From positions 1 to 37,726 of the forward strand of contig CAWUWP010000117.1 in NCBI GenBank assembly GCA_963926275.1: 37,726 nt of DNA, read 5' to 3'. Below, in pieces: positions 4,302 to 32,853 of this stretch; the first letter of the stretch is position 1; each line of letters begins with the position of its first letter. The DNA is from an uncultured Gammaproteobacteria bacterium. Its GTDB lineage: Bacteria > Pseudomonadota > Gammaproteobacteria > UBA4575. The notes beneath the pieces are model-generated. The model saw only the letters and a program-made list of their open reading frames with translations. It did not search any database and was not told the DNA's origin. Made by a program: the position numbers and the translations under genes.

Positions 4302-5419
4302 TGGCAAAGCTTGACACATTTAACGATCCGTTTGATTTTCGTATTAGAACGCTTCCGGAGCCTAATCCGGATATTCAAACGTTACGTGTTTTTAGTAATG
4401 AAGGTGTAATTACTAAATTTAATAACTTAACTCATGATACTTATGAGGTAGTGATTACTTGTCCTGAAGGTTCGCATATATTATCTGCGCGAGCTGGTCA
4501 GTACGGCACTATTAAAGTAGAGGGCATGCAAAAACCTCGATCTTACTCATTTGCTAAAACACCGGAGATGGAAAACCCTAATGAGTATTCTTTCTTTATC
4601 CGACTGGTGCCAGGTGGTGAATTATCAGGTTGGTTAGCAGAAAAGAATCGTGAGGGAGAGAAAGTAATTGTTTCAGGGCCAATGGGTAAGTTTGGTTTAG
4701 ATGAGAGCATCAAACCTATTGTTGGTATTGCTGGTGGTTCAGGGATGAGCGCTATCAATGCTATTGCCCAGCAAGTGAAAGTACAAGACATTCCACGTGA
4801 CTTTTATTTCTTCTATGGTGCACGCACACAAAAAGATTTGTACCTGCTTGATGAGCTTAAAGAATATGAGAATAGTTGGCCCGGGGGTAAGTCATTCAAG
4901 TTTATTCCGGTGTTGTCTGAAGAGCCTGATGATAGTGACTGGGAGGGTCCAAGAGGATTTGTGACTCAGTACTTCCAGGAAGAATATCTAAATAAAGGTG
5001 TTGTTACTGCGGATAACACAAAAGCATTTTTCTGCGGCCCACCACCAATGATAGATCATGGAGTGAAAGTGTTAGAAGAAGCAGGTTTATCTAGCGCTGA
5101 TATATACTTTGATAAGTTTGAAGATGCACGTTCCCCAGCACCGGTCATTGATAATGAAATGTGTGTGTTATGTGATGAATGCTTAATGGCTAAGCCAACC
5201 AAGAACTGCATCGTCGAAGCAACTAATTTCAAAGTTAGTGATGGTAAAGTCACCTCATTTGAGCGTGTGAATCCGGGGCATACTTCAGGGTTGTATTACA
5301 ATTCATTATTTATTGATGAGACAGAATGTATTCGCTGCTATGCATGTATTGACGCGTGTCCTCATGATGCAATTTCACCGTCATATGCACAGGTTCCTAT
5401 AACTTTAAGGAAACTTTAA
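4301..5419 (+). CDS. FNR-like FAD/NAD(P)H oxidoreductase fused to a C-terminal dicluster 4Fe-4S ferredoxin domain
   Basis: RSYSFA (RxYS FAD motif), GIAGGSGMS (nucleotide-binding loop), FFCGPPPM. C-terminal CVLCDEC...C and CIRCYACIDACP. The start ATG shares one base with the upstream TAA (TAATG). Confidence 0.8.
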   Translation: MAKLDTFNDPFDFRIRTLPEPNPDIQTLRVFSNEGVITKFNNLTHDTYEVVITCPEGSHILSARAGQYGTIKVEGMQKPRSYSFAKTPEMENPNEYSFFIRLVPGGELSGWLAEKNREGEKVIVSGPMGKFGLDESIKPIVGIAGGSGMSAINAIAQQVKVQDIPRDFYFFYGARTQKDLYLLDELKEYENSWPGGKSFKFIPVLSEEPDDSDWEGPRGFVTQYFQEEYLNKGVVTADNTKAFFCGPPPMIDHGVKVLEEAGLSSADIYFDKFEDARSPAPVIDNEMCVLCDECLMAKPTKNCIVEATNFKVSDGKVTSFERVNPGHTSGLYYNSLFIDETECIRCYACIDACPHDAISPSYAQVPITLRKL

Positions 5420-7992: not shown

Positions 7993-8117
7993 TTGCTTCT
8001 TTCATGGATAGTAATTGACCACTATACATTGAATATAAAGTTAGAAGTGTGATTATCTTCAAATGTAAAATGGGGTTACTTGTTATGTAGATGAGACGTT
8101 TAAAAACCCTGATCACT

Positions 8118-8576
8118 TTACCGGGGTCGACGTCTTTTTAGCTGAAAGCTATTGGCGTCAATCACCAACAATTCTTTTTTAGTTAATTCAAATATGGCGC
8201 GCTGGCCAAATGTCTGTGCTAGTTGGCAAGCCTGTGAGCGAGTGAAGCCATAGATTGCAAAACTGTTCTCTTGCCAATCTCCGTTAGAGGAGCGACCGAT
8301 GACCGGCTTAAATTCAAGATTTAATGTTTCGATGTATTCCTATAGAGAGTGATTGCGCAAGTTATTTTCATCATTAGTTAGGATGTTTTCAAATGGATTG
8401 CAGGCAGTAATGATATGAATGGGTGTCTTTAGTGGTAACGCTTGGTTTTGAGCAGCAGACCAATTCATGTTGCTATCTACAATATGAGAACCAATATACA
8501 CATCCCAAATGTCATTATTATTCTGCTTGGAAGTATTCATTGCATTGTGAGTATAGAACAAAGAACTCTGAGCCAT
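8118..8576 (-). pseudogene. DUF3293-like gene interrupted by an in-frame TAG (8340-8342)
   Basis: The listed 78-aa ORF (..IHIITACNPFENILTNDENNLRNHSL*) continues in the same frame after TAG. The continuation reads EYIETLNLEFKPVIGRSSNGDWQENSFAIYGFTRSQACQLAQTFGQRAIFEL.. and stops at 8118-8120. Together the two parts reproduce the ITAxNP...G.S.DG.W.E.S....A..LA..FGQ.AI pattern I associate with DUF3293. Confidence 0.55.
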
Positions 8577-8670
8577 TTATTCTATAACAGTTATAGCTCT
8601 CAACTTGTTAACATCTAATATACGCCTTGCGAATATATTTATTCGTAACTGTGAGAGTAAACTTCAAATA

Positions 8671-9126
8671 TTAGTCCAAAGGAATTTTCAACCTAAACCA
8701 TTTTGTATGGCTTTTCTCCTGGGTAGTATTCACGGATAGGCATTCTTTGCTTTCTACCAGACCTTCTATATCAGGATCTTGTACGCAAAAATGAAACGTG
8801 CTCGTTTTCCAATATACGAATTCGATCGGGCTTTCATTATTTTTAAATTTAAATATTTCTACATCAGTTTTGTCACCGATAGACATGTGCGTAATTGTGA
8901 AGGATCCCCAGCCAGCCCTATATACGTCGAGACACATCTGTCCAATAGGCATTTTGGATTCTTCGGTAATTACCGTTGGCTTCATAATTAGATGCCGACC
9001 CATTACTGAGCTATAAAACTCAACGGCTTTCTCTACATCAGGAACAGAATGCCAATGTGCGAGAAAGTTCTTGGACAGTGACTCATCGTCCTTCTCCTGA
9101 GTAATTGTTAGCGGTTCAATGATCAA
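8671..9126 (-). CDS. VOC (glyoxalase/bleomycin-resistance/dioxygenase) family protein
   Basis: HWHSVPDVEKAVEFYSSVMGRHLIM...VEIFKF...FHFCVQDPDIEGL resembles the paired beta-alpha-beta-beta-beta VOC fold. Non-ATG (TTG) start, and the C-terminus looks short. Confidence 0.5.
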   Translation of the reverse strand: MIIEPLTITQEKDDESLSKNFLAHWHSVPDVEKAVEFYSSVMGRHLIMKPTVITEESKMPIGQMCLDVYRAGWGSFTITHMSIGDKTDVEIFKFKNNESPIEFVYWKTSTFHFCVQDPDIEGLVESKECLSVNTTQEKSHTKWFRLKIPLD

Positions 9127-9468
9127 GCCACTTGATATCTTGTTATTCTAGAATTAACTTGTGAACGGTACTGGCCTCAATTTCAAACCTTGCCATAGAC
9201 GGGTACCATCGCACTTTTTACTGACGTGACTAACACTGAGTTTAGATACAACAAGTATTGGCGACATCTTCAGTCCGGCACCCAGGTTAAAAGGTCTGCG
9301 TTGGGCATATCGTTTCTATTGGTGGGTATGTCGATGGTGTCAGGAAGTACACGGTTGATGTTAATGTCATTGTTCTATGGAATAACGTATATGATTAATT
9401 TAATTTATTGCCCTGAAGTTATGCGCAGCTTGTATAATTGAATACAAAGTCTATTTATAAAAGGAAAG

Positions 9469-9900
9469 TTGATGTTTCGCTTAATGTTAAGTTTGTTAGT
9501 TTCTGCGCTGAGTGTCTCTGCTGTGTATGCTGATGATAGTTTAATTTCAAAAGCAGCTCCTGATGCTAAAGTATATTTTATTGAACCGTTAGATGGCGCG
9601 CTGGTAAGTAAAACCTTCACGATCAAATTTGGTTTGAGTGGTATGGGTGTCGCCCCCGCAGGCACAGACCGTGAGCATACTGGGCATCATCATATTTTAA
9701 TCGATTTAGACGTACTGCCAGATATGACAGTTCCGTTACCGGCGAATGACCATGTAAAACACTTTGGCGGTGGACAGACAGAAACAACACTTACGTTAGA
9801 GCCCGGCACCCATACACTCCAGTTGCTACTGGGTAACCATATTCACATTCCTCATGATAACCCGATCATGTCAGAAAAAATCACCATTACTGTCGAGTAA
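9469..9900 (+). CDS. DUF4399 domain protein (secreted, His-rich)
   Basis: Signal peptide (LSLLVSALSVSAVYA). HTGHHHILID core and GTHTLQLLLGNHIHIPHD, characteristic of DUF4399. Confidence 0.75.
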   Translation: MMFRLMLSLLVSALSVSAVYADDSLISKAAPDAKVYFIEPLDGALVSKTFTIKFGLSGMGVAPAGTDREHTGHHHILIDLDVLPDMTVPLPANDHVKHFGGGQTETTLTLEPGTHTLQLLLGNHIHIPHDNPIMSEKITITVE

Positions 9901-9943
9901 GTTATTTTCGAAGTTATTGGTGGGGTTAAAATGAAGCACCATT

Positions 9944-9970
9944 AAAAAAGGCGGCAAAAGAATTGCCGCC
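9944..9970 (-). terminator. Rho-independent terminator of nrdB (hairpin between convergent genes)
   Basis: ggcggcaa-aagaa-ttgccgcc 8-bp GC-rich stem. On the minus strand it is followed by TTTTTT. A second small hairpin, ccaccgtgcggtgg, lies at 9980-9993. Confidence 0.75.
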
Positions 9971-10043
9971 TAAACTTTACCACCGTGCGGTGGTCCCATA
10001 ACGCTGTGTAAAAGGCTACTTTATCGGTAGCTCAATTATAGGC

Positions 10044-11252
10044 TTACCAAACAAGTGCTCCGCCAGTTTGGTATTCAGTAACACGCGTTTCAAAGAAGTT
10101 CTTTTCTTTCTTAAGGTCTAATACTTCAGACATCCATGGGAATGGATTAGTCGCACCTGGGTATTGTTCAGGTAAACCAATCTGTGAGCAACGACGGTTA
10201 GCAATGAAATGAAGGTACTCAGCAAACATATTCGCGTTTAAGCCAAGTATGCCGCGTGGCATGGTGTCTTGTGCGTATTGAATTTCTAGGTCGACTGCAT
10301 TAGTAATGAGATCAATCATTTCTTGTTGGAACTCTTTGCCCCAAAGATGTGGGTTTTCCACTTTGATTTGGTTGATAACATCAATGCCGAAGTTCATGTG
10401 CATAGATTCGTCACGCAAGATGTATTGGAATTGCTCAGCAACCCCGGTCATTTTATTGCGACGACCCATAGATAGAATTTGTACAAAGCCAACGTAGAAG
10501 AAGATACCTTCAAACACCACATAGAACGCAATCAAGTCGCGCAGTAAGCGTTGGTCCATTTCTGGTGTGCCAGTGGCGAAGTGCGGGTCACCTAGACTTT
10601 GGGTGAAGGGCAATGCCCACTCTGCTTTCTTAGCCACGGAAGGAACTTCACGATACATATTGAAGACTTCGCCTTCATCTAAACCTAATGACTCAATACA
10701 GTACTGATAAGCGTGTGTATGCACCGCTTCTTCAAAGGCTTGGCGTAATAAGTACTGGCGGCACTCAGGGTTAGTGATGTGCTTGTAAACCGCCAACACT
10801 AAGTTGTTGGCAACGAGAGAATCAGCAGTTGAGAAGAAACCTAAGTTACGCTTAATCACAGTACGCTCATCATCAGTTAGTCCATTTGGATCCTTCCAAA
10901 GGGCGATGTCTTGCGTCATGTTGATTTCTTGAGGCATCCAGTGGTTTGCACAACCATCCAGATATTTTTGCCATGCCCACTCATATTTGAATGGCACTAA
11001 CTGGTTAAGGTCAGCGCGGCAGTTAATAATCTTTTTGTCGTCAACACGAATACGCGCAGCACCCATTTCGATGCTTTCAAGTCCTGTAGCGCCAGCATCA
11101 GCGTCAAGCGCAGTTGTCACAAGGGTGGAGGCAGGGATAGTTTCATTGACTGCGGGTGTTTCAGCGGTAATGTTTACGTCTGAAGGTATGTTAGCAATAG
11201 CGTCTTGCTCTGCTGTATCTGCTTCTGCTAAGGGGTCGTCCCAATTGAGCAT
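10044..11252 (-). CDS. nrdB: Ribonucleoside-diphosphate reductase class Ia beta subunit (with Ala/Thr-rich N-terminal extension)
   Basis: Di-iron/tyrosyl-radical motifs ([25 protein letters not shown]). C-terminal tail ..[10 protein letters not shown]. Lies immediately downstream of nrdA. Confidence 0.95.
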
Positions 11253-11291
11253 TTGGTTGTTCTCCGAATTATTATAGTGATAGCAGAGAGT

Positions 11292-11319
11292 GCGTTGCTG
11301 TTATCGCTAACAACAACGC
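11292..11319 (-). other. Intercistronic stem-loop between nrdA and nrdB
   Basis: gcgttgctgtta-tcgc-taacaacaacgc. 12-bp stem (11/12 paired) with a 4-nt loop, inside the 147-bp nrdA-nrdB spacer. Confidence 0.5.
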
Positions 11320-11399
11320 TGTCTCCTATTTGCAGGGCGCTTGTGGTGCCCCTTCTCCTCTAGTTGCGTTTCCGCAAACTTTTACTTCTAGTTCTCTAC

Positions 11400-14288
11400 T
11401 TATTGGCAAGCGTCACAATCAGGATCAAGTAATGAACATGCACTAGGTGCAGCACTTGCAGGTACAGAATCTGATTGTTGTACGGCGTTGAGTTTGCTTT
11501 CCTGGTGGTTTTCCATGGTGCTTTTCTCTACGTGTGTCGCACCCATCGAACGTAGGTAGTAGGTGGTCTTTAATCCACGTACCCAAGCTAACTTATACAG
11601 GTTGTCCATCTTCTGTCCGGAGGGTTCAGCCATATATAGGTTGAGCGATTGTCCTTGATCAAGCCATTTCTGACGACGTGAGGCAGCTTCAATTAACCAG
11701 CGTGGATCAACTTCAAAAGCAGTTTTATAAATGTTCTTAACTTCGTCAGGGACACGATCAATATTTTGCACACTACCATCGTAGTACTTAAGGTCATTGA
11801 TCATGACGTTATCCCACAAATTGTGTCGTTTAAGATCAGAAATGAGGTATGGGTTAGCGACCGTGAACTCACCTGATAAGTTCGATTTCACAAATAAGTT
11901 TTGGTAAGTCGGCTCAATACTTTGAGTGACACCGCAAATATTAGAAATAGTCGCAGTCGGTGCAATTGCCATGGTGTTTGAGTTGCGAATACCCACTGTC
12001 TTCACGCGTGTACGCAATGTTTCCCAATCCAGGGTGGTAGAACGATCTACTTTCAAGAAGCCGCCACGTTCTTTCTCAAGTAAGTCAATTGAGTCGATAG
12101 GCAAAATACCTTGAGACCATAATGAGCCTTCATAAGATAAGTAAGCACCACGTTCAGCAGCAAGATCTGTTGATGCTTGAATTGCGTAGTAGCTGATAGT
12201 CTCCATAGACACATCAGCAAACTCAACGGCTTGCTCACTTGCGTAAGGAATACGTAACTTATATAGCGCATCTTGGAAGCCCATCAGACCTAAACCAATA
12301 GGACGATGACGCAAGTTAGAAGTACGCGCTTTGTTAACGCTGTAATAGTTGTAGTCGATGACGTTATCGAGCATACGAATCGCAGTGTTAATAGTCTTTT
12401 GTAACTTGTCTGTGTCTAGCCCGTTCTCAGTCGTATGAGCTGCTAAGTTAACTGAACCTAAGTTACATACAGCGATTTCATCATCAGATGTATTTAATGT
12501 GATCTCAGTACATAAGTTGGATGAGTGAACTGTGCCAACATGTCCTTGTGGCGAACGAATATTGCAAGGATCTTTGAAGGTGATCCAAGGGTGGCCCGTT
12601 TCATACAGCATGCCTAACATTTTTCGCCATAGGTCAGCCGCAGGAATTCGTTTGTAGTTTTTCAATTCACCTGCATCGGCAAGTTGTTCATACTCACAGT
12701 AGCGAGTTTCAAACTTTGCACCGTATAAATCGTGTAAGTCTGGGGTATCGTCAGGGGAGAACAATGTCCAGCCACCTTCTTCGCTAACACGCTTCATGAA
12801 TAAGTCAGGAATCCAGTTGGCGGTATTCATGTCATGAGTACGACGACGATCATCACCTGTGTTCTTGCGTAAATCCAAAAACTCTTCGATATCTAAATGC
12901 CAAGTCTCTAAGTAAGCACACATTGCACCTTTGCGTTTACCACCTTGGTTAACAGCTACTGCGGTGTCGTTGGCAACTTTAAGGAAAGGCACCACACCTT
13001 GTGATTTGCCATTAGTGCCTTTAATGTGCGAGCCCATGGAGCGAACGCGTGTCCAGTCATTGCCTAGTCCGCCGGCAAATTTAGACAGCATAGCGTCGTC
13101 TTTAATCGCATCAAATATTCCGTGAAGATTATCTGGCACAGTGGTGAGGTAACACGATGATAACTGAGGTCGTAATGTGCCTGAATTAAATAATGTGGGT
13201 GTCGAGCTCATGAAGTCAAACGAAGATAATAAGCGATAAAATTCAATGGTACGTTTTTCACGCTCAATTTCGTTGATCGCTAATCCCATTGCCACGCGCA
13301 TAAAGAATACTTGAGGTAATTCTATGCGAGTGCCTGCTTCGGTATGAATGAAATAACGGTCATAAAGTGTTTGTAAGCCAAGATAAGTGAACTGGTAATC
13401 ACGAGAAGGCTCTAATGCTTTGCCGAGTGCTTTTAAGTCGTAGTCTTTGGCTAGTTTAGAGTCGATTAGCTCCAGCTTTGCTGCTTCTTCGATGTAATTT
13501 TCAAAGTAGATCGCGTACTCCGTATCCATTTCTTTCTGAGTGGCTTGGCTAGGCTTACCATTGACGTGGCTGAGTGCTTCGCAACGAAGGTTATCTAGTA
13601 GTAAACGTGCGGCAACATAAGAGTAGTTAGGCTCACGTTCAATCAGCGTACGTGCACTCATGGTGACGGCAGTAGAAACATCACTTTCTGGCACACCATC
13701 AAAAAGATTACGTAGTGTTTCATCAATAATAGGTTGTGCTGACACGTTATCTAAATTGCGGCAGGCATCTTCTATAACTGTAGTAAGTCTATGAATATCA
13801 AGAGGTTTTACTTTCCCATTGGCGTCAGTAACATTGATGCTAATACCACCTGCGCTAGAGGCTGCAGTCTCTTTAGTTTCAGCGCGTTCTTGTGTACGTC
13901 GCTCACGATAAAGCACGTAATCACGCGCTACTTTATGGTGGCCTTCTCTCATTAATGCCAGTTCTACCTGGTCTTGAATATCTTCGATATGGAAGGTGCC
14001 ACCATCGGGCTTATTACGAGTCAGCGCGTTTTCCACATAGGTGCTCAACTGGTCGACTGTGTCATGAACACGAGTAGAGGCAGCGGCTTCTCCACCTTCT
14101 ACGGCTAGGAATGCTTTGGTGACAGCAATTTTGATTTTGTCACGGTCAAAACTAGTGACTTTTCCATTACGGCGAATAACGCGGTAATGGCCGGGTGCAG
14201 TAGATTGTAATTCTAGCTCGCTGGGAGCATCAGCGAGGGGTGTGGCGTGACTATTTTCTTGAGATGATGTTGTATTATTAGATTGCAT
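11400..14288 (-). CDS. nrdA: Ribonucleoside-diphosphate reductase class Ia alpha subunit (long form, extended N-terminal ATP-cone region)
   Basis: 962 aa. ATP-cone region (VIRRNGKVTSFDRDKI). Catalytic NLCTEI and SNTMAIAPTATIS motifs. C-terminal redox Cys pair (CSLLDPDCDACQ). Confidence 0.96.
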   Translation of the reverse strand: MQSNNTTSSQENSHATPLADAPSELELQSTAPGHYRVIRRNGKVTSFDRDKIKIAVTKAFLAVEGGEAAASTRVHDTVDQLSTYVENALTRNKPDGGTFHIEDIQDQVELALMREGHHKVARDYVLYRERRTQERAETKETAASSAGGISINVTDANGKVKPLDIHRLTTVIEDACRNLDNVSAQPIIDETLRNLFDGVPESDVSTAVTMSARTLIEREPNYSYVAARLLLDNLRCEALSHVNGKPSQATQKEMDTEYAIYFENYIEEAAKLELIDSKLAKDYDLKALGKALEPSRDYQFTYLGLQTLYDRYFIHTEAGTRIELPQVFFMRVAMGLAINEIEREKRTIEFYRLLSSFDFMSSTPTLFNSGTLRPQLSSCYLTTVPDNLHGIFDAIKDDAMLSKFAGGLGNDWTRVRSMGSHIKGTNGKSQGVVPFLKVANDTAVAVNQGGKRKGAMCAYLETWHLDIEEFLDLRKNTGDDRRRTHDMNTANWIPDLFMKRVSEEGGWTLFSPDDTPDLHDLYGAKFETRYCEYEQLADAGELKNYKRIPAADLWRKMLGMLYETGHPWITFKDPCNIRSPQGHVGTVHSSNLCTEITLNTSDDEIAVCNLGSVNLAAHTTENGLDTDKLQKTINTAIRMLDNVIDYNYYSVNKARTSNLRHRPIGLGLMGFQDALYKLRIPYASEQAVEFADVSMETISYYAIQASTDLAAERGAYLSYEGSLWSQGILPIDSIDLLEKERGGFLKVDRSTTLDWETLRTRVKTVGIRNSNTMAIAPTATISNICGVTQSIEPTYQNLFVKSNLSGEFTVANPYLISDLKRHNLWDNVMINDLKYYDGSVQNIDRVPDEVKNIYKTAFEVDPRWLIEAASRRQKWLDQGQSLNLYMAEPSGQKMDNLYKLAWVRGLKTTYYLRSMGATHVEKSTMENHQESKLNAVQQSDSVPASAAPSACSLLDPDCDACQ

Positions 14289-23514: not shown

Positions 23515-23555
23515 TTGACTGGCTTAATCATCAGACACTATAATGTATATACATT
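23515..23555 (+). promoter_or_regulatory. Sigma70-like promoter with overlapping palindromic operator upstream of the RHH gene
   Basis: TTGACT (23515-23520), 18-nt spacer, TATAAT (23539-23544). Perfect 14-bp palindrome AATGTATATACATT (23542-23555) overlaps the -10. Further TGTATA/TATACA half-sites flank it. Confidence 0.55.
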
Positions 23556-23586
23556 GTATATCTTTCGGTCTGGACGATCAAAAATA

Positions 23587-23757
23587 ATGAGCGACAAAAG
23601 TAAGAACAAGAATAAGAATAAGGATAGTCAGCTGGTCATACGCATCAATAAAAAAGAGCGTGATGAATTCGTATCACTTTGTGATGAGCTTGATACTAGT
23701 GCGGCAAGAGAGATACGGCGCTTTATTCGCGACTTTATTCATCAACAAGACAAATAA
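23587..23757 (+). CDS. Small ribbon-helix-helix (CopG/Arc-like) DNA-binding protein
   Basis: 56 aa from the internal ATG. Lys/Asn-rich tail, then QLVIRINKKERDEFVSLCDELDTSAAREIRRFIRDFI, which gives a beta-strand/helix/helix pattern. Confidence 0.6.
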   Translation: MSDKSKNKNKNKDSQLVIRINKKERDEFVSLCDELDTSAAREIRRFIRDFIHQQDK

Positions 23758-25001: not shown

Positions 25002-25787
25002 TTACGATTCAGTTTTAGTGTCTATTTTAGTGCCTAGCACGACGTCTTTCTCACGTAGCTGAGTAAGCGTCGTGTGCCCGCCATGCACCACTACATCTTG
25101 TGAGATTGATGGAATCTCTTTGGCGATGGTGAGTAAAATTTCTTCACCTGTTTGAGTCTTGTTGTTAGCCACTAGCTCGACTAGCCGAGCGGTCATTGGG
25201 TTCATTTCCATAAACCCAACCTTATCTTTTTGATCTCTATACACCAAAATAAAAGTCGCTTGTTCTGGAGCAGTCTCGGGTTGGAAGCCCGGTTTTATTT
25301 TATGCACAGGATAATCGTAACGATCAAGTTGCATTAGTGGAGAAAGCACAGGTATTTGCTTGAGCAAGTTGCCATTTTTGTTGATGCCTCCCCACTCTAT
25401 TTCGGCGTCTGAAAACGACAGCATTATTTCTAGCCACTCATAATGGGTGAGCTCTAATAAAAATGCGGGATCTTCTTCCTGTGATTTCCGCTCTTCGTTT
25501 AGATAGATAAGGAATTCTTTGGAGATATCCTTAAAGTATGGCGAATGACTTTTATGTGTCGAGAAAAAATCTCTGACCATTTTGTGCCAAGCATCATCAC
25601 TATAAAGTTTACGTGTGACCGGGAAGCCACTTGCTAAAAAACCTTGTACATTTCTATACAATAAGCCACGGTAGATTTCTAAACGACGATCTTCAATTCC
25701 AGCAGGTGCCGGATTTTTTTCTGGATCTCTTAAGTGCGCAGTAAATTCGTATTGCACATCTTTAAAATTCTTTTGTATTTTAAGCAT
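25002..25787 (-). CDS. DUF2063 family RiPP maturation partner (MbnC/BufC/HvfC-like)
   Basis: Start at MLKIQKNF. The 8-nt ATGCTTAA overlap with the MNIO gene indicates translational coupling. N-terminal ..LEIYRGLLYRNVQGFLASGFPVTRKL.. resembles DUF2063. Confidence 0.75.
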   Translation of the reverse strand: MLKIQKNFKDVQYEFTAHLRDPEKNPAPAGIEDRRLEIYRGLLYRNVQGFLASGFPVTRKLYSDDAWHKMVRDFFSTHKSHSPYFKDISKEFLIYLNEERKSQEEDPAFLLELTHYEWLEIMLSFSDAEIEWGGINKNGNLLKQIPVLSPLMQLDRYDYPVHKIKPGFQPETAPEQATFILVYRDQKDKVGFMEMNPMTARLVELVANNKTQTGEEILLTIAKEIPSISQDVVVHGGHTTLTQLREKDVVLGTKIDTKTES

Positions 25788-26637
25788 GAGCAGATACTGT
25801 GTTAGCAGAATTATTCCATTTCTGCTGTAGCTGACGAATTTGATCAACCTCTTTCATTAGTGCAGGAATTTTGGGGATATTAAAATCTCTTTCTAGCAGC
25901 GTGGGAAATACACCAAACGTTTCATAAGCTTTATCTAGTATTGTCCACACGGGGCCAATTACATTAGCACCATGTGTGTCTATAATTAAATCTTTTGCTT
26001 CATTGTAATGGCCGGCTATATGGCAGTAAGTTATTCGTTGTTTAGGCAGTGATTGTAAAAAAGTGATCGGGTCATATCCATGGTTGACTGAATTCACATA
26101 AATATTATTTACATCTAATAATAATTCGCAATCTGCTTCTTCCAATACTGCTTTAAGGAAATCGATTTCTTCCATTTCTTTGCCAGGGGCTGCGTAGTAA
26201 GACGCATTCTCTATAGCGATGCGTTGGCCAAGAATATCTTGCACCTGTTTGATGCGATCTGCTACGTAATGTACTGCTTCACTGGTGAAGGGGATGGGCA
26301 TTAAGTCATACAAGTGACCTTGGTCTGAACAGTAAGTTAAATGTTCTGTGTATTTGAGAATATTATGCTGCTGCATAAATTTTTTAATGTCATGGATAAA
26401 CTCTAAATCTAAAGGGGTTGGTCCACCGATAGATAAAGATAGACCGTGAGTGACAAAGTCATAACGTTCAGTGTATTCGCGAAAACGTTTCCCTAGTCGC
26501 CCGCCGATTCGGATCCAGTTTTCTGGTGCAACTTCCATGAACTGAACTTGCATAGGATTAACCTCAAGAAGCTCTTCCATCATGTGGCCGCGCCTAAGCC
26601 CTAGACCCGCACCACTTACACAGTATTCATTAGACAT
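25780..26637 (-). CDS. DUF692 / multinuclear non-heme iron oxidative enzyme (MNIO; MbnB/BufB/HvfB-like)
   Basis: 285 aa. GAGLGLRRGH, VQFMEVAPENW, THGLSLSIGG, YTEHLTY, IENASYY, LLLDVNNIYVNS, CHIAGH. This is the TIM-barrel DUF692 motif series. Confidence 0.88.
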   Translation of the reverse strand: MSNEYCVSGAGLGLRRGHMMEELLEVNPMQVQFMEVAPENWIRIGGRLGKRFREYTERYDFVTHGLSLSIGGPTPLDLEFIHDIKKFMQQHNILKYTEHLTYCSDQGHLYDLMPIPFTSEAVHYVADRIKQVQDILGQRIAIENASYYAAPGKEMEEIDFLKAVLEEADCELLLDVNNIYVNSVNHGYDPITFLQSLPKQRITYCHIAGHYNEAKDLIIDTHGANVIGPVWTILDKAYETFGVFPTLLERDFNIPKIPALMKEVDQIRQLQQKWNNSANTVSAHA

Positions 26638-26689: not shown

Positions 26690-27295
26690 CTATCGTTTGT
26701 TGATGAAGTTTAAGTAGTAATCAAGGCTGAAGAATTTACCGGCACCAATGAAAAACAATACTAACAACATAATGAAATAGGTAGTGGCAAACTCGATGCC
26801 ATTATTGAGGGAAACGAAACCACCATTCTCGGTTAACCATGAATAGTTGCCATGTTCTTTTAATATATCTTTAGCGACACCTAATCGCTCCACTGCTTCC
26901 ATGGTTCGCTCTGTTGCAAATAGTCCTGAGCCGGATGAAATTGCTAACCATCCGTTACCAATATGTACAGAGAAAATTGCTACTAACATGGTGGCCATTA
27001 GCGGGATAGATATCCAACGTACTCCGAAGCCAACGAGTAGAAATATTGCGCCTAATACTTCTGTCCAGCCAGCGAGGAAAGCCATGAGTGTTGGCAGTGG
27101 TAATCCAAGGCCCCAATCCGCGTTTCCAAACCAGCTGACAGTTGATTCAAATGGCATAAAGGTTGAGAAATCAATTTTACTTGTACCTGCCATCCAAAAA
27201 ACTGGCACCAGATAAAGGCGTAACGCTAATGGCCCAAGAAAATCTAATACGCGTAGCTTGTCAAAAATTGAATTTATAAAATTAATTATGCCCAT
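26690..27295 (-). CDS. DoxX family integral membrane protein
   Basis: Start at ATG 27295, preceded by GGGAG. LALRLYLVPVFWMAGTSKI and four hydrophobic helices typical of DoxX. Confidence 0.8.
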   Translation of the reverse strand: MGIINFINSIFDKLRVLDFLGPLALRLYLVPVFWMAGTSKIDFSTFMPFESTVSWFGNADWGLGLPLPTLMAFLAGWTEVLGAIFLLVGFGVRWISIPLMATMLVAIFSVHIGNGWLAISSGSGLFATERTMEAVERLGVAKDILKEHGNYSWLTENGGFVSLNNGIEFATTYFIMLLVLFFIGAGKFFSLDYYLNFINKR

Positions 27296-27323: not shown

Positions 27324-28835
27324 TTAAATATGCACGTATTTTGCTTCACTTGAATACAATTCATCTAGTGGTATTGATCTTCCTTGAGAGTTAACAATAT
27401 ACGCATGTTTTCTGCATAATTGACGAGGCTCTACGACACCACAAGAGTGGGCAATGACTCCTACTTCATAGACCATGTTTTTGACGTAATTACTTACACG
27501 CTGTGCCTTATTTTCTGGATTCAAGCCACTTTGCAGATCTTTGTCATGGGTGGTTATGCCGGTGGGGCAAGTGTTTTTATTGCATTGAAGTGCCTGAATA
27601 CAGCCGATGGAAAACATAAAGCCACGTGCTGATGTAATAAAGTCCGCACCTGTCGCTAGTGCCCATGCGACTTCGACTGGAGTAATTAATTTTCCTGAGG
27701 AGATAACTTTTATGCGATCACGAAGACCGTGTTCTTTTAATTTATTGATGAGTAGAGGCAGGCTTTGTTTTATAGGTAAACCCACGTTGTCCATTAAACT
27801 CATAGGCGCGGCACCTGTTCCTCCGTCTCCGCTATCTAATGTAATATAATCTGGTGCAGATTCTATTCCACGTTGATTTATTAGTTTGAATAGATCATCA
27901 AGCCAATCTCTGGCTCCTAAGACAGTTTTGAATCCTACGGGTTTGCCAGTTATGTCTCGAATTTTTTTTAGCATATCGAGTAATTCCTCAGCCGAACTGA
28001 CATCAATATGTCTATTAGGGCTAATAGAGTCGGCGCCTACAGGGATGCCACGGATTTTGGCAATTTCTTCATTGACTTTGGCGCCAGGTAAAATACCACC
28101 TTTCCCAGGTTTAGCACCTTGAGCAAGTTTTAATTCAAACATTTTCACCTGCTTGTGATCACTTACCGCTTTTAATTTCTCGGTATCTAATTTTCCTTCC
28201 TGATCACGAACACCATATTTTGCGGTGCCGATTTGGAAAACAATATCTGCTCCACCTTCTAGGTGGTAGGGGGATAGACCACCTTCACCGGTATTCATCC
28301 AGCATCCTGCCATGCGCGCACCGTTAGATAGCGCTAGTACAGCAGGTTTAGAAATTGCCCCAAAACTCATTCCTGAAATATTAATGATGGAACGTGTGGT
28401 GTAGGGTTGTTTGCAAGATTGTCCAATGGTGACTTCATGTGGCTCTGCAGAATCAATGCTTAATTTAGGGAAGGGGCAGTTACCAAAAATAATCGTGCCC
28501 GGTTTATAAAGGTCACATGTTGATCCAAATGCAATAGTGGAATCGATATCTTTAGATGCGCGATATACCCAAGATCTTTCTGCTCGATTAAACGGTAACT
28601 CTTCTCGGTCCATGGCAAAAAAATATTGGCGAAAGAATTCGCCCATATGTTCAAAGAGATAACGAAAGCGACCTATGACGGGGTAATTGTGTCGAATCGC
28701 TTGCTTTGTCTGTGAGCGATCAATGACATATAAAACAGCGACAAGAATAATGCCTGCGCCAATGATGAAAATAAATAGGAATGCTAAAATTTCAAGGGTG
28801 GTTAATGCGAATGTGGATATTTCATACATTTCCAT
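27324..28835 (-). CDS. Membrane-anchored FMN-binding glutamate synthase-domain (GltS FMN domain/YerD-like) oxidoreductase
   Basis: 503 aa. N-terminal TM helix (LEILAFLFIFIIGAGIILVAVLYVI). ISGMSFGAIS, NTGEGG, KLAQGAKPGKGGILPG, SPNRH, ITLDSGDGGTGAAP. Confidence 0.85.
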   Translation of the reverse strand: MEMYEISTFALTTLEILAFLFIFIIGAGIILVAVLYVIDRSQTKQAIRHNYPVIGRFRYLFEHMGEFFRQYFFAMDREELPFNRAERSWVYRASKDIDSTIAFGSTCDLYKPGTIIFGNCPFPKLSIDSAEPHEVTIGQSCKQPYTTRSIINISGMSFGAISKPAVLALSNGARMAGCWMNTGEGGLSPYHLEGGADIVFQIGTAKYGVRDQEGKLDTEKLKAVSDHKQVKMFELKLAQGAKPGKGGILPGAKVNEEIAKIRGIPVGADSISPNRHIDVSSAEELLDMLKKIRDITGKPVGFKTVLGARDWLDDLFKLINQRGIESAPDYITLDSGDGGTGAAPMSLMDNVGLPIKQSLPLLINKLKEHGLRDRIKVISSGKLITPVEVAWALATGADFITSARGFMFSIGCIQALQCNKNTCPTGITTHDKDLQSGLNPENKAQRVSNYVKNMVYEVGVIAHSCGVVEPRQLCRKHAYIVNSQGRSIPLDELYSSEAKYVHI

Positions 28836-28886
28836 TGGGACTCTCCAGCGTCTTATATTCGATACTTATTATATAACGTTAGGCGC

Positions 28887-28921
28887 AAAAAAAAATGGCG
28901 GGTCCTATTAAGGATCCCGCC
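28887..28921 (-). terminator. Rho-independent terminator downstream of the precursor-peptide gene
   Basis: On the minus strand: ggcgggatcc-ttaata-ggacccgcc followed by nine T. Confidence 0.8.
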
Positions 28922-28927
28922 GTTCCG

Positions 28928-28964
28928 ACACACTAGATTCGATAGCAACTAGAATCTAGTGTGT
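28928..28964 (-). other. Perfect 13-bp stem hairpin in the precursor 3' UTR
   Basis: acacactagattc (28928-28940) pairs perfectly with gaatctagtgtgt (28952-28964). 11-nt loop. Confidence 0.7.
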
Positions 28965-29005: not shown

Positions 29006-29299
29006 TTAGCTCTCGCCGCACTTACCTTCACCACACTTACCTTCTTCCATTTTTTCGGCAGCAGCTTCACCTTCACCACATTTACCTTCACCACATTTAC
29101 CTTCTTCCATTTTTTCGGCAGCAGCTTTACCTTCGCCACATTTACCTTCTTCCATTTCAGCAACCATGTAGCCAGAAGAAAGCTCAGTTAAATCAAATGG
29201 GTTTGCATCAGCATTAGCAATAGGCATAGCCATTACACTTACTGTTAGAGCAGCGGCAACTGCTGCAGCGATGGGCTTAAGTTCAAATTTCTTAGACAT
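29006..29299 (-). CDS. Sec-exported RiPP precursor peptide with five EGKCGE motifs (HvfA/bufferin-like metallophore precursor)
   Basis: GGAG Shine-Dalgarno. Signal peptide MSKKFELKPIAAAVAAALTVSVMAMPIANA|DA. Acidic core ..EMEEGKCGEGKAAAEKMEEGKCGEGKCGEGEAAAEKMEEGKCGEGKCGES. Every Cys lies in EGKCGE. Confidence 0.85.
   Translation of the reverse strand: MSKKFELKPIAAAVAAALTVSVMAMPIANADANPFDLTELSSGYMVAEMEEGKCGEGKAAAEKMEEGKCGEGKCGEGEAAAEKMEEGKCGEGKCGES
29009..29158 (-). repeat. About 2.5 copies of a 60-bp in-frame tandem repeat encoding EKMEEGKCGEGKCGEGEAAA
   Basis: cttcttccattttttcggcagcagc recurs exactly 60 nt apart (29041 and 29101). The repeat lies inside the precursor CDS. Confidence 0.9.
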
Positions 29300-30170: not shown

Positions 30171-30806
30171 TTATTTTTCTAATCGAGAGTTTTTGAGTGC
30201 CAGTAACTTATCAGCAAGTCCTTGCTTACTGTTAGATAAAAAAGTCTGCTGTTGAGATTTTTTATTTATTAGGCGTTGCTCACGAAATTTTATACGTTGT
30301 TTGCTTTTGCTAGTAAAATTTTTCTTAGCAGATCTGTGTTCTAGCATGTTAATCCCATAAGCAAAAGTTTGTGCTAATGGGATGTTGCTAGGACAGGCTG
30401 TATCGCATTTGCCACATTGAGTGCATGAGGCTAGCGACTGTTTTTCAGCATGGCTAAATTTCTTGCCACGAATGTTGGCGTATAAAGATTCTGGATTTAA
30501 TTGACTCGGGCAGACAGGGATACAATCATTGCAATGGATGCAAGCTTTGTGGTCGCTGAATTTCGGAACGCTGGGTTGAATTTTTTCTAGCGCATGATTA
30601 GATTGCATTGAAATGCAATCAACCGGGCAAGGCTCAATGCATAGTTTACAGCCTGTGCACAATTGCTTGATCACACTATGAAGTTGTTTCGACGCACCTA
30701 GAATGGCATCAAACGGACAGGCTTTAATGCAAAGTGTGCAACCAATGCAGCGATCTTCATCTATAACAGCGAGTGTTTTGCTAAATGAGATCGGCGTTGA
30801 TTGCAT
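30171..30806 (-). CDS. Polyferredoxin, RnfB/RsxB C-terminal-like (four CxxCxxCxxxCP motifs)
   Basis: [48 protein letters not shown]. Start taken at MQSTPISF, downstream of the metG stop. Confidence 0.8.
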
Positions 30807-30813
30807 ATGAAAT

Positions 30814-32853
30814 TTACTTGACGCGCATTCCTGGTGTTGCACCATCGTCAGGATGAATTATAAATAATCCACTATCAGTGCCGCTGGCCGCGATGACCAT
30901 GCCTTCGGATAAACCAAAACGCATTTTACGTGGAGCAAGGTTGGCTACCATTACTACCAGCTTCCCTTCTAGGTCTTCTGGTTTGTACGCGCTTTTGATA
31001 CCCGCAAATACATTTTTCTGTAAGCCACCAGTAGGCTCGCCAAGATCTAAAGTGAGTTGCAATAATTTGTCAGCGCCTTCTACATGCTGTGCTTTTGCGA
31101 TACGTGCTATGCGTAAATCGAGTTTGGAGAAATCATCAAATGAAATTTCATCACTGATAGGATCGCTGGCTTTGGGTGCAGCATCTTGCTTTGTTTCTTC
31201 GGTTATTTTTTCTATGGCTTCTTTTTCGATGCGTGTAATCAGTGGTTTGAATTTATTTATCTCATGGCCTTCGGGGAAAGGTAGATCACTAGCCAAATCA
31301 TCCCAGCTAATTTCTGTATTTAAAAAGACTTCAGATTTTTGTGCCAACTCAGGCATGACTGGTTTTAAATAACCAATTAATAAGTGAAACATGTTGATGC
31401 CAAAACTGCATACTTGATGAACTTCTTCTTTGTTGGCTTCGTCTTTAATGCGTTCCCAAGGTTTGTTTTTGTCTATTACTTGGTTGGCAGTATCTGCTAT
31501 AGCCATAATGATTCTCATGGCTTCAGAATATTTTCTTTCTTCATAACATGTTTTAATTGCATCATTTCTATTAACTGCAGCTGTGTATGTTTCCTCTCCA
31601 TCTGGAACAGAAATTTGATCAGTCAGTTTCGAATCAAACTTTTTATTTATAAATCCTGCGCAGCGGCTAGCAATGTTTACTAGTTTTCCAACCACGTCGC
31701 TGTTCACGCGCTGTTGGAAGTCTTCAAGATTCAAATCAATATCAGCAATACCATCGTTTAATTTTGCGGCATAGTAATAGCGCAAGTACTCAGGTTGTAA
31801 GTGATTCAAATAAGTACGCGCTTTAATAAAGGTGCCGCGCGACTTAGACATTTTCTTGCCGTTAACCGTCAAAAAGCCATGGCAGTAAACACTGGTGGGT
31901 GTGCGCCAACCCGAGCCCATTAATGTTGCTGGCCAAAATAAAGTATGGAAATAAGCGATATCTTTTCCTATGAAATGATAAAGCTCTGCATCGCTATCAG
32001 GCTTCCAAAACGAATCGAAATCTTCGCCAGTACGATCACAGTAATTTTTAAAGCTGGCCATGTAACCAATCGGTGCATCTAGCCATACATAAAAGTATTT
32101 GCCTGGGGCATCTGGAATTTCAAATCCAAAATAAGGTGCGTCGCGTGAGATATCCCAGTCCTTTAATCCATCCTCAAACCATTCTGAAATTTTATTAGCA
32201 ATTTCTGATTGTAGACTGCCAGATTGAGTCCACTCTTTTAACGCCGGCTCTAATGTGCTGAGTTTGAAAAAGTAATGTAGATTTTCTTTTTCTATTGGCT
32301 TAGCACCACTTAGTGCGGAACGTGGGTTAATTAAATCTGATGGTGTGTAGGTGGCACCGCAGACTTCGCAGTTATCACCATACTGTTCTTCTGCCTTACA
32401 TTTCGGACAGGTGCCGCGAACAAAGCGGTCAGGTAAAAAAACTTTTTCGTCTGGGTCAAATAAATCAGTGACTGTCTTGGTGCTGATATAGTCATTTTTC
32501 TGCAACTCTTTGAACATGCTGGTTGCAAAATGTTTATTTTCTTCTGAGTGGGTGCTGTGGAAATTATCAAAATTTACATGGAAATCAGCAAAATCCTGCT
32601 CATGTTCTTGTTTGGTTTTGGCAATAAGCTGTTCGGGTGTGATGCCCTCTTGTTGAGCGCGAATCATTATTGGCGTGCCATGAGCATCGTCTGCACAGAC
32701 ATAAATACATTGGTGACCACACATTTTTTGAAAGCGCGTCCATATATCCGTCTGAATGTACTCTACGAGATGGCCTAAATGGATAGATCCATTCGCGTAA
32801 GGAAGTGCGCTAGTGACTAAAATTCTTCGATTATTCACGTGTTTACAGAACAT
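30814..32853 (-). CDS. metG: Methionine--tRNA ligase
   Basis: [18 protein letters not shown], Zn knuckles CPKC/CEVCG, KMSKS, C-terminal tRNA-binding (EMAP/Trbp111-like) domain. Confidence 0.97.

Follow-up and report, generated by a model that had tools for sequence, protein, structure and literature searches.

A predicted membrane-anchored glutamate-synthase-type protein is encoded beside hvfX within and outside Hvf-type gene clusters

Hvf (oxazolin) and bufferin-type metallophores have opened up only recently as a field of study; the one made by Haemophilus is a virulence factor. The Haemophilus operon has been described with hvfA, hvfB, hvfC, and hvfX, and HvfB acts with HvfC to modify HvfA (PMC11252979). 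HvfX was still called uncharacterized in June 2026. Here, we analyze a stretch of 37,726 nucleotides from an uncultured gammaproteobacterium of the UBA4575 lineage (contig CAWUWP010000117.1, assembly GCA_963926275.1), hereafter the window, whose DNA has near-exact matches in marine metagenomes. Its hvf cluster contains an additional gene encoding a protein related to glutamate synthase (GltS). This GltS-like gene and hvfX form a conserved two-gene cassette, present inside hvf clusters or standing alone. The new element is the cassette itself; the protein superfamily and the type of hvf cluster were already known.

The window resembles the hvf operon of nontypeable Haemophilus influenzae (PMC11252979) in most of its components. 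Both contain an EGKCG precursor with a signal peptide, the MNIO maturase HvfB, its partner HvfC, and a DoxX-like HvfX. Three of the four window proteins exceed NCBIfam family cutoffs (for HvfX, 220.7 bits with a cutoff of 80). The precursor passes the domain model KCGExKCG_twice (51.3 bits, cutoff 19.5), and its HvfA equivalog score of 54.5 lies under the cutoff of 95. An earlier annotation made from the DNA letters alone (the sequence-only reading) had described the enzyme as embedded in an MNIO cluster for a peptide made by ribosomes and modified after translation (RiPP). The NCBIfam families now identify that cluster as Hvf type, and homology assigns it to the HvfA/HvfX/HvfB/HvfC thiooxazole ("oxazolin") metallophores. 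The difference lies in gene content. The Haemophilus operon comprises four genes and no flavoenzyme, whereas the window has a fifth gene between hvfA and hvfX, just where the sequence-only reading had located it, between precursor and DoxX. Along the minus strand, the cluster runs hvfA, terminator, GltS-like gene, hvfX, hvfB, and hvfC, abbreviated below as A-G-X-B-C (G, the GltS-like gene).

Linkage was evaluated from the enzyme side in a species-level set, for which one genome per GTDB species was scanned; at least 80 loci were found at 63-74% identity to the GltS-like protein. The closest relatives lie outside this species listing, where the best entry reaches 74%, and were covered instead through four contig look-ups. 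In close relatives at 89, 85, and 77% identity (L001, L002, and L005), the precursor-GltS-HvfX-HvfB-HvfC block is intact, in L005 next to a different right flank. One relative at 72% identity carries the GltS-like gene alone, without hvf neighbors. When the 80 listed species loci were scored by tblastn with the Hvf proteins of the window, 15 had the GltS-like gene beside hvfB/hvfC and 6 more beside HvfX only. Among loci with 10 kb on both sides, 12 of 44 were linked. Random placement would yield 15 of 80 with a probability of ~4e-23, a figure that ignores shared ancestry.

Linked genes lie on the same strand with gaps mostly below 350 nt, the exception being L082, where a 52-aa HvfX fragment is found on the opposite strand. 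Three gene orders occur (A-G-X-B-C, A-B-C-G-X, and (A)-B-C-X-G), and G and X are direct neighbors in each. Direct same-strand adjacency of the two genes was observed in the window, in L001, L002, and L005, in 14 of the 15 hvf-linked loci, and in 5 pair-only loci. At five loci, a full-length HvfX accompanies the enzyme and no MNIO is encoded within 10 kb; the DoxX genes of the pair-only loci are true HvfX members (189-242 bits, cutoff 80). Unsupervised clustering of every open reading frame (ORF) within 5 kb, carried out for 84 loci, returned HvfX as the commonest neighbor family (23 loci) and MNIO as the second (19 loci).

In a neighbor-joining tree, linked members fall into at least five clades, intermixed with unlinked ones. 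Many linked loci occupy one chromosomal site next to nth; others (L012, L015, L018, L020, and L033) lie away from it. Flanks of the window type were absent from all unlinked loci. The genes stay together through internal rearrangements and are also linked at other sites, which argues for selection. The sequence-only reading had left room for a fortuitous neighbor. That option is rejected, given that the gene stands beside hvfB/hvfC in 15 of 80 loci in three orders and with HvfX alone in 6 more.

Several individual loci merit separate mention. L021 was not counted as linked, as its MNIO is 31% identical, lies on the opposite strand, and is 2.4 kb away. The HvfX of L001 (9528-10118) is 52% identical to that of the window, its neighbors 82-89%, and the HvfX of L002 (9537-10139) 92%. 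The pattern in L001 resembles an exchange of the hvfX allele, the rest of the cluster being conserved. L047 (9005-9439) encodes a DUF1841 protein of ~145 aa immediately upstream of its hvf block, with matching ORFs in L011, L026, L032, L065, L068, L069, and L077. Most loci that also have nth nearby share this gene (L011, L026, L032, L047, L065, L068, and L069); the window has no DUF1841 gene between nth and hvfA. On the TARA scaffold L004 (8011-8778), whose GltS-like protein is the same as in L002 and L003, the hvfC match covers only the C-terminal 160 aa and follows hvfB after a 309-nt gap, which suggests that hvfC is disrupted or misassembled there. A 102-aa ORF downstream in L006 was considered as an EGKCG precursor and rejected; it encodes a glycine-rich secreted protein.

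The association was also examined from the hvf side. Searching metagenome contigs for the exact pattern EGKCGEGKCG recovered 119 hvf loci, among them 30 complete A-B-C clusters flanked on either side by at least 500 nt. HvfX was present in 10 of the 30 and the GltS-like enzyme in none; across all 119, one incomplete locus (L103) has hvfA followed by the GltS-like gene. Together with the four-gene operon of Haemophilus, these counts indicate that the GltS-like gene is a lineage-restricted accessory and not a core component. The enzyme is dispensable for the cysteine modification carried out by HvfB/HvfC. The sequence-only reading had named, as grounds for abandoning the link, unrelated neighbors of the gene in close relatives that keep the rest of the block. 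By this yardstick the outcome is mixed: relatives at 77-91% identity retain the gene in the block; however, most hvf clusters lack it and most family members reside elsewhere. L206 was not counted as linked, as its family member is 41% identical, 2 kb off, and separated by an opposite-strand gene. In this locus (8075-12595), the distant membrane-anchored member (545 aa) is encoded 2 kb upstream of the gene for a probable regulator of the MerR type, judged from its translation. The regulator is followed by a precursor mixing EGKCG with EGGCSGKMP repeats, and then by hvfB.

The GltS-like gene is real, transcribed, and constrained. Its product gives a single strong Pfam match, Glu_synthase (PF01645), at E=4.2e-89 over residues 124-466 (299.7 bits, cutoff 20.4), covering profile positions 42-367 of 369. 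It aligns over its full length with relatives at 63-91% identity, and mean column identity across orders reaches 79%. Comparison of the gene with its L001 orthologue (pN 0.062, pS 0.736) indicates strong purifying selection. The family is large, with at least 8000 database clusters at E<=1e-10, the top 120 of which are all at least 70% identical. Short exact-match contigs of four marine metatranscriptomes fall inside the gene. They are too sparse to resolve read-through versus termination at the hvfA junction, and contig ends at 28843-28849 give no evidence for a transcription start site.

The nearest solved structures, both by sequence and by predicted fold, are GltS large subunits, matched in the flavin mononucleotide (FMN) domain only. 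The AlphaFold2 (AF2) model shows a barrel, for which Foldseek ranked GltS structures as the best matches (E=7e-18). A QGAKPGxGG loop at residues 239-247 and a DGGTGA loop at residues 337-342 both align to five GltS structures. The GltS FMN motifs noted in the sequence-only reading are accordingly present in the 503-aa ORF, with KLAQGAKPGKGGILPG at residues 236-251 and DSGDGGTGAAP at residues 334-344. That reading had overlooked two further features, namely a cysteine triad and most residues of the GltS 2-oxoglutarate site. C412, C418, and C423 align with the GCIMxxxCHxNxCPVG segment of the five GltS structures, are invariant in the conservation set of 16 aligned relatives, and represent putative [3Fe-4S] ligands as in glutamate synthase. 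Residues E903, Q969, K972, and R992 of Synechocystis ferredoxin-dependent GltS (Fd-GltS) correspond to E184, Q239, K242, and R262, all invariant in the same relatives. We take K972 and R992 of GltS to hold 2-oxoglutarate and its three cysteines to hold the [3Fe-4S] cluster. Two positions of the substrate loop are changed relative to the Synechocystis enzyme, E975 to K245 and Q978, which belongs to the 2-oxoglutarate site, to I248; K245 is invariant and I248 nearly invariant across the family.

The single N-terminal transmembrane helix proposed in the sequence-only reading is consistent with the hydropathy profile. The only hydrophobic stretch covers residues ~5-38 (Kyte-Doolittle maximum 3.15), and the AF2 model places one long helix at residues 3-45. 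No Tat-type signal was found in the protein. Before the helix there are no positive and three negative charges, and after it five positive and one negative. According to the positive-inside rule, these flanking charges predict an outward N-terminus and a cytoplasmic catalytic domain. Residues ~47-95 (IRHNYPV..GEFFRQYFFAxDREExPF) are among the most conserved parts of the family and are modeled with low confidence. Their position directly after the membrane helix suggests a role at the membrane interface. Taken together, the alignments and models describe the protein as a stand-alone, apparently membrane-tethered form of the GltS electron-transfer/substrate-reduction module. A bona fide glutamate synthase (GltB/GlsF) is ruled out by its length of 503 aa and by the presence of PF01645 alone. 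The NCBIfam GltB equivalog scores 125 bits with a cutoff of 1047, and matches to the Protein Data Bank (PDB) span only GltS residues ~855-1160. Table 1 lists the features of the locus.

Table 1. Features of the GltS-like gene and its hvf cluster in the window, with positions counted on the forward strand.
Feature	Position	Strand	Basis or details
GltS-like FMN/[3Fe-4S] protein gene	27324..28835	-	ATG start, 503 aa, predicted membrane-anchored
FMN/substrate loop codons, K236-G251 (KLAQGAKPGKGGILPG)	28083..28130	-	Alignment to 1llw
Putative [3Fe-4S] ligand motif codons, C412-x5-C418-x4-C423-P	27564..27602	-	Aligned to GltS
Predicted N-terminal transmembrane helix codons (residues ~9-38)	28722..28811	-	Hydropathy, flanking charges, model
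hvfA-type precursor	29006..29299	-	97 aa with a Sec signal peptide; EEGKCGEGKCGE repeats hold five KCG motifs
hvfX (DoxX family), direct neighbor	26690..27295	-	Probable start ATG 27295; PF07681 E=7.8e-19
hvfB, MNIO maturase	25780..26637	-	PF05114 E=7e-103; HvfB family 442.2 bits, cutoff 360
hvfC, partner/RiPP recognition element (RRE) protein (DUF2063 + NGO1945_C)	25002..25847	-	HvfC family 303.7 bits, cutoff 142
Post-precursor RNA structure, intrinsic terminator or attenuator	28887..28964	-	13-bp hairpin 28928-28964, bulged G+C hairpin 28897-28921, U9 28887-28895
TATAAT box (28868-28873) and GGAG ribosome-binding site (28843-28846)	28843..28873	-	Sequence, ahead of ATG 28835

The regions flanking the gene provide additional signals. 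The structure after the precursor folds with a minimum free energy of -47.6 kcal/mol (z=-5.3), and 0 of 200 shuffles fold as well. Its hairpin and T-run are kept in L001, L002, and L005. The U-run ends ~52 nt ahead of the GltS-like ATG, in line with the start ~50 nt after the terminator given in the sequence-only reading. A consensus scan missed this terminator because its hairpin is bulged, and its promoter-like and terminator-like hits in the region were no more than in shuffles. Both the TATAAT-like and the GGAG elements of the earlier proposal are present, the latter 7 nt ahead of the ATG, yet a sigma-70 scan called no promoter at the box because the -35 is poor. A TATAAT/TATACT box occurs at the equivalent place in three relatives, and an internal promoter ahead of the GltS-like gene is possible. 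No Rfam match was found in the window at gathering thresholds. At the other end, the distance of 28 nt between the stop codon and DoxX holds with ATG 27295, which has its own GGGAG; the longest ORF extends to TTG 27310. The start codon of hvfC is uncertain, and its ORF overlaps the end of hvfB.

Housekeeping genes flank the cluster. One side has nth, a polyferredoxin gene, and metG; the other has an isocitrate/isopropylmalate-type dehydrogenase gene and rimO. The polyferredoxin-like protein (30171-30845, minus strand) is rich in CxxCxxCxxxCP, and its gene overlaps the end of metG (30814-32853, minus strand) by 32 nt. This metG-polyferredoxin-nth arrangement upstream of the hvf block is kept in L001, L002, L005, and L026, with parts of it in several other linked loci. 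A small ORF at 23515-23757 (plus strand; 80 aa from TTG), Lys/Asn-rich near its start (KSKNKNKNK), has no Pfam match, and ORFs of 54-55 aa lie at a similar spot in L001 and L002. The region 1980-5419 (plus strand) encodes a molybdopterin oxidoreductase of 773 aa and, directly after it, a reductase that has FAD/NAD-binding and 4Fe-4S domains. The two may be an assimilatory nitrate-reductase-type system and are unrelated to the GltS-like gene.

Other genomic contexts of the enzyme offer clues to its substrate. In 10 loci, an acetolactate-synthase-like enzyme dependent on thiamine pyrophosphate (TPP) directly adjoins the GltS-like gene on the same strand (NF006187, 775-869 bits). The best solved relative of this TPP enzyme is deposited only as acetolactate synthase, which does not settle its substrate. 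An aldehyde dehydrogenase gene, for which no specific NCBIfam cutoff was passed, lies on the same strand in 6 to 7 loci, either directly adjacent or one gene further, after the TPP enzyme. GltS-like gene, TPP enzyme, and aldehyde dehydrogenase form an apparent operon in L040 (10001-14605), L045, and L054. The TPP/aldehyde dehydrogenase context, combined with the conserved residues of the 2-oxoglutarate site, points to a small glutamate- or 2-oxoacid-like substrate. A CPA1 Na+/H+ exchanger gene (PF00999) is a further recurrent neighbor, 47-886 nt after the enzyme or the enzyme-HvfX pair in nine loci (L011, L012, L015, L019, L020, L027, L053, L066, and L075). L020 (4445-13585) combines all of these elements, with hvfA-B-C, TPP enzyme, aldehyde dehydrogenase, GltS-like gene, hvfX, and CPA1. 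In the unlinked locus L006 (11473-14158), the GltS-like gene has two neighbors at 2-4.7 kb, one encoding a multicopper oxidase (PF07732/PF07731) and the other an outer-membrane efflux protein, an arrangement seen at this single locus.

Our preferred reading, to which we assign a probability of roughly 45%, is that the GltS-like protein may be a cytoplasm-facing dehydrogenase that exchanges electrons with the membrane via HvfX and serves as an accessory redox-support module of the hvf cluster. The flavin site would oxidize a small glutamate-like amino acid, or reduce the matching imino or oxo acid, and the [3Fe-4S] cluster would pass single electrons to or from the membrane. By analogy with DoxX/DoxD proteins, HvfX may be the quinone-facing partner or a link to a membrane-side acceptor. 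In hvf clusters, the module would support whatever HvfX does and would not participate in peptide tailoring. The flavin and the [3Fe-4S] cluster of glutamate synthase have low potentials. Hence, in an organism that uses ubiquinone, electrons would more plausibly run from substrate to quinone than in the opposite direction. More speculative, and doubtful in our judgment, is an extended version in which the GltS-like protein and HvfX constitute a new membrane oxidoreductase. Electrons of a cytoplasmic amino acid would then reach the thiooxazole metallophore system by way of the [3Fe-4S] cluster and HvfX. This route would be the physiological source of reductant so far missing for MNIO/HvfA chemistry or for copper handling at the membrane.

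Several observations weigh against an HvfX-coupled dehydrogenase. In 59 of the 80 listed species loci, neither HvfX nor hvf genes lie nearby, so the enzyme can function without HvfX. Conversely, HvfX occurs without the enzyme in 10 of the 30 complete hvf clusters and can function without it. In favor of the pairing, 14 of 15 hvf clusters with the GltS-like gene carry HvfX, compared with 10 of 30 that lack the gene (Fisher p=1.3e-4), but the two sets were sampled differently and lineage confounds the comparison. The shared nth site implies fewer than 15 independent linkage events, and co-occurrence partly reflects shared ancestry. The E975-to-K and Q978-to-I changes indicate that the substrate may not be glutamate. 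No open paper naming GltS K972, R992, and E903 was found. For the family as a whole, the substrate, the direction of electron flow, and the contact with HvfX are all inferred.

Alternatively, the protein could be a dedicated reductase for the MNIO step, which returns oxidized HvfB to the Fe(II)/Fe(III) state or keeps the HvfA cysteines reduced, with HvfX only helping to anchor it. Electrons from a cytoplasmic donor would enter at the flavin and leave via the [3Fe-4S] cluster. In vitro, HvfBC depends on a reductant (dithiothreitol or ascorbate), which brings it into the active Fe(II)/Fe(III) state and also maintains HvfA thiols in reduced form, and only ~20% of HvfBC is in the active mixed-valent form; the word 'reductase' is absent throughout the HvfBC paper. 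HvfB and HvfC act in the cytoplasm, the compartment predicted for the catalytic domain, the gene lies directly upstream of hvfX-hvfB-hvfC in a presumed operon, and hvfB/hvfC linkage recurs in 15 of 80 listed relatives. However, the invariant neighbor is HvfX and not HvfB/HvfC, and five loci have the enzyme and full-length HvfX but no MNIO within 10 kb. Most family members are far from any MNIO, the 30 complete precursor-sampled clusters lack the enzyme, and HvfB of the four-gene Haemophilus operon is reported to modify HvfA without it. The supply or removal of reducing equivalents, as suggested in the sequence-only reading, is plausible, but the conserved partner is the DoxX protein HvfX and not the MNIO. 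We rate a role as MNIO reductant lower than support of HvfX and consider it unlikely. A housekeeping enzyme with no mechanistic tie to the metallophore is a further possibility. Here, the protein would be, for example, a membrane-bound glutamate-type dehydrogenase feeding a 2-oxoacid decarboxylase and an aldehyde dehydrogenase, and its closeness to hvf genes would reflect an inherited neighborhood or shared regulation. The predominance of unlinked relatives, the second conserved context, the very high conservation across orders, and the many linked loci at the nth site, which fit vertical inheritance, all favor this explanation. A possible -10 box of its own and the terminator that separates the gene from the precursor are further points in its favor. 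Inherited proximity does not readily explain why G stays next to X and the hvf genes in three orders, on one strand and with short gaps, why linked loci occur away from nth, or why the L005 block is intact despite a different right flank while no unlinked locus has window-type flanks. HvfX and MNIO also remain the top two neighbor families, and we regard a purely housekeeping role as unlikely.

Two further possibilities carry less weight. The position of the gene directly after the precursor and the glutamate-rich core peptide invite the idea, raised in the sequence-only reading, of a tailoring enzyme that acts on the EGKCG glutamates or on an intermediate of the MNIO reaction. The conserved site residues are those holding a free 2-oxo or amino dicarboxylate in GltS, whereas peptide-bound glutamate has no free alpha-carboxylate or alpha-amino group. 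Moreover, the enzyme is the most conserved cluster protein in two of three close relatives (89/85/77% against 77/77/49% for HvfA; HvfB reaches 90% in L002). It is still 63-74% identical in genomes without RiPP neighbors, all 30 complete EGKCG clusters do without it, and linked and unlinked members are intermixed in the tree. Because the site fits a free dicarboxylate, evolution is slow, and the family is widespread outside RiPP clusters, a tailoring role appears highly improbable. Alternatively, the enzyme may be a metabolic backup under copper stress, co-regulated with the cluster, that keeps glutamate/nitrogen or membrane redox balance when copper damages iron-sulfur enzymes and exchanges no electrons with the metallophore. 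Copper is reported to inhibit glutamate synthase in E. coli, and hvf-type products are reported in the literature to form in stress responses and, in general, to be copper binders. Such a function is compatible with the unlinked relative in L006, which has genes for a multicopper oxidase and for outer-membrane efflux less than 3 kb away. Against it, the enzyme carries a putative iron-sulfur cluster and would itself be a copper target, copper genes are found near it at one locus only, and the strict adjacency to HvfX is left unexplained. This backup function is accordingly judged quite improbable.

Pairing with a predicted flavo-iron-sulfur enzyme provides a first testable clue to the function of HvfX, and the GltS-like enzyme becomes a candidate for keeping HvfBC and HvfA reduced in the cell. 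The three recurring contexts (HvfX/hvf, TPP enzyme with aldehyde dehydrogenase, and the CPA1 antiporter) offer first handles on the substrate of the family. If the oxidoreductase reading is true, HvfX and the family of stand-alone glutamate-synthase-domain proteins with a membrane anchor would each gain a first assigned function. In the literature searched, no assigned function was found for this family, and queries for the name YerD and for 'FMN-binding glutamate synthase family' returned unrelated papers only (mostly on Yerdel grading of portal vein thrombosis). The MNIO, Hvf, and bufferin papers searched contain no mention of a glutamate-synthase-domain protein, FMN, or flavin, in agreement with the sequence-only reading, which had placed the family outside the described MNIO pathways. 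PF01645 is absent from a 2025 MNIO landscape survey and three of its supplements (PMC12452194). Our literature search also returned no paper linking HvfX/DoxX with glutamate synthase, or copper with 3Fe-4S in such a context.

Comparison with described systems places the locus among several partial precedents. A few EGKCG clusters carry extra oxidored_molybd (PF00174) or ferric-reductase-type genes, which suggests metal or redox functions (PMC12452194). The window cluster likewise has an added redox component, but one of the PF01645 family. In cyanobacteria, a bypass consisting of 2-oxoglutarate decarboxylase and succinic semialdehyde dehydrogenase (SSADH) has a logic that leads from amino acid to oxo acid, then to aldehyde, and finally to acid (PMC5160925, PMC10418658). 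In related genomes, but not in the window, the GltS-like gene directly precedes the TPP enzyme gene and the aldehyde dehydrogenase gene comes next, an enzyme logic equivalent to that of cyanobacterial OgdA and SsaD, which act on 2-oxoglutarate. The genetic pairing of a DoxX-family membrane protein with a peripheral redox enzyme is shared with the archaeal thiosulfate:quinone oxidoreductase DoxDA and with DoxX-SseA-SodA of M. tuberculosis; the Mycobacterium complex has been cited in connection with HvfX (PMC11252979). Here, however, the partner is a GltS-type, predicted flavo-iron-sulfur protein, and the resemblance is one of analogy only. With the GltS large subunits (Synechocystis 1llw/1ofd, Azospirillum 1ea0/2vdc, and B. 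subtilis 7mfm), the GltS-like protein has in common the TIM-barrel FMN domain, the QGAKPGxGG and DGGTGAxP loops, the Cx5Cx4CP motif, and the equivalents of E903, Q969, K972, and R992, at ~25-30% identity over roughly 285 residues. Unlike GltS, it lacks the N-terminal class II glutamine amidotransferase domain, the central domain, the C-terminal GXGXG beta-helix domain, and the beta subunit. Its own features are the predicted N-terminal membrane helix and the family-specific, highly conserved aromatic segment at residues ~47-95.

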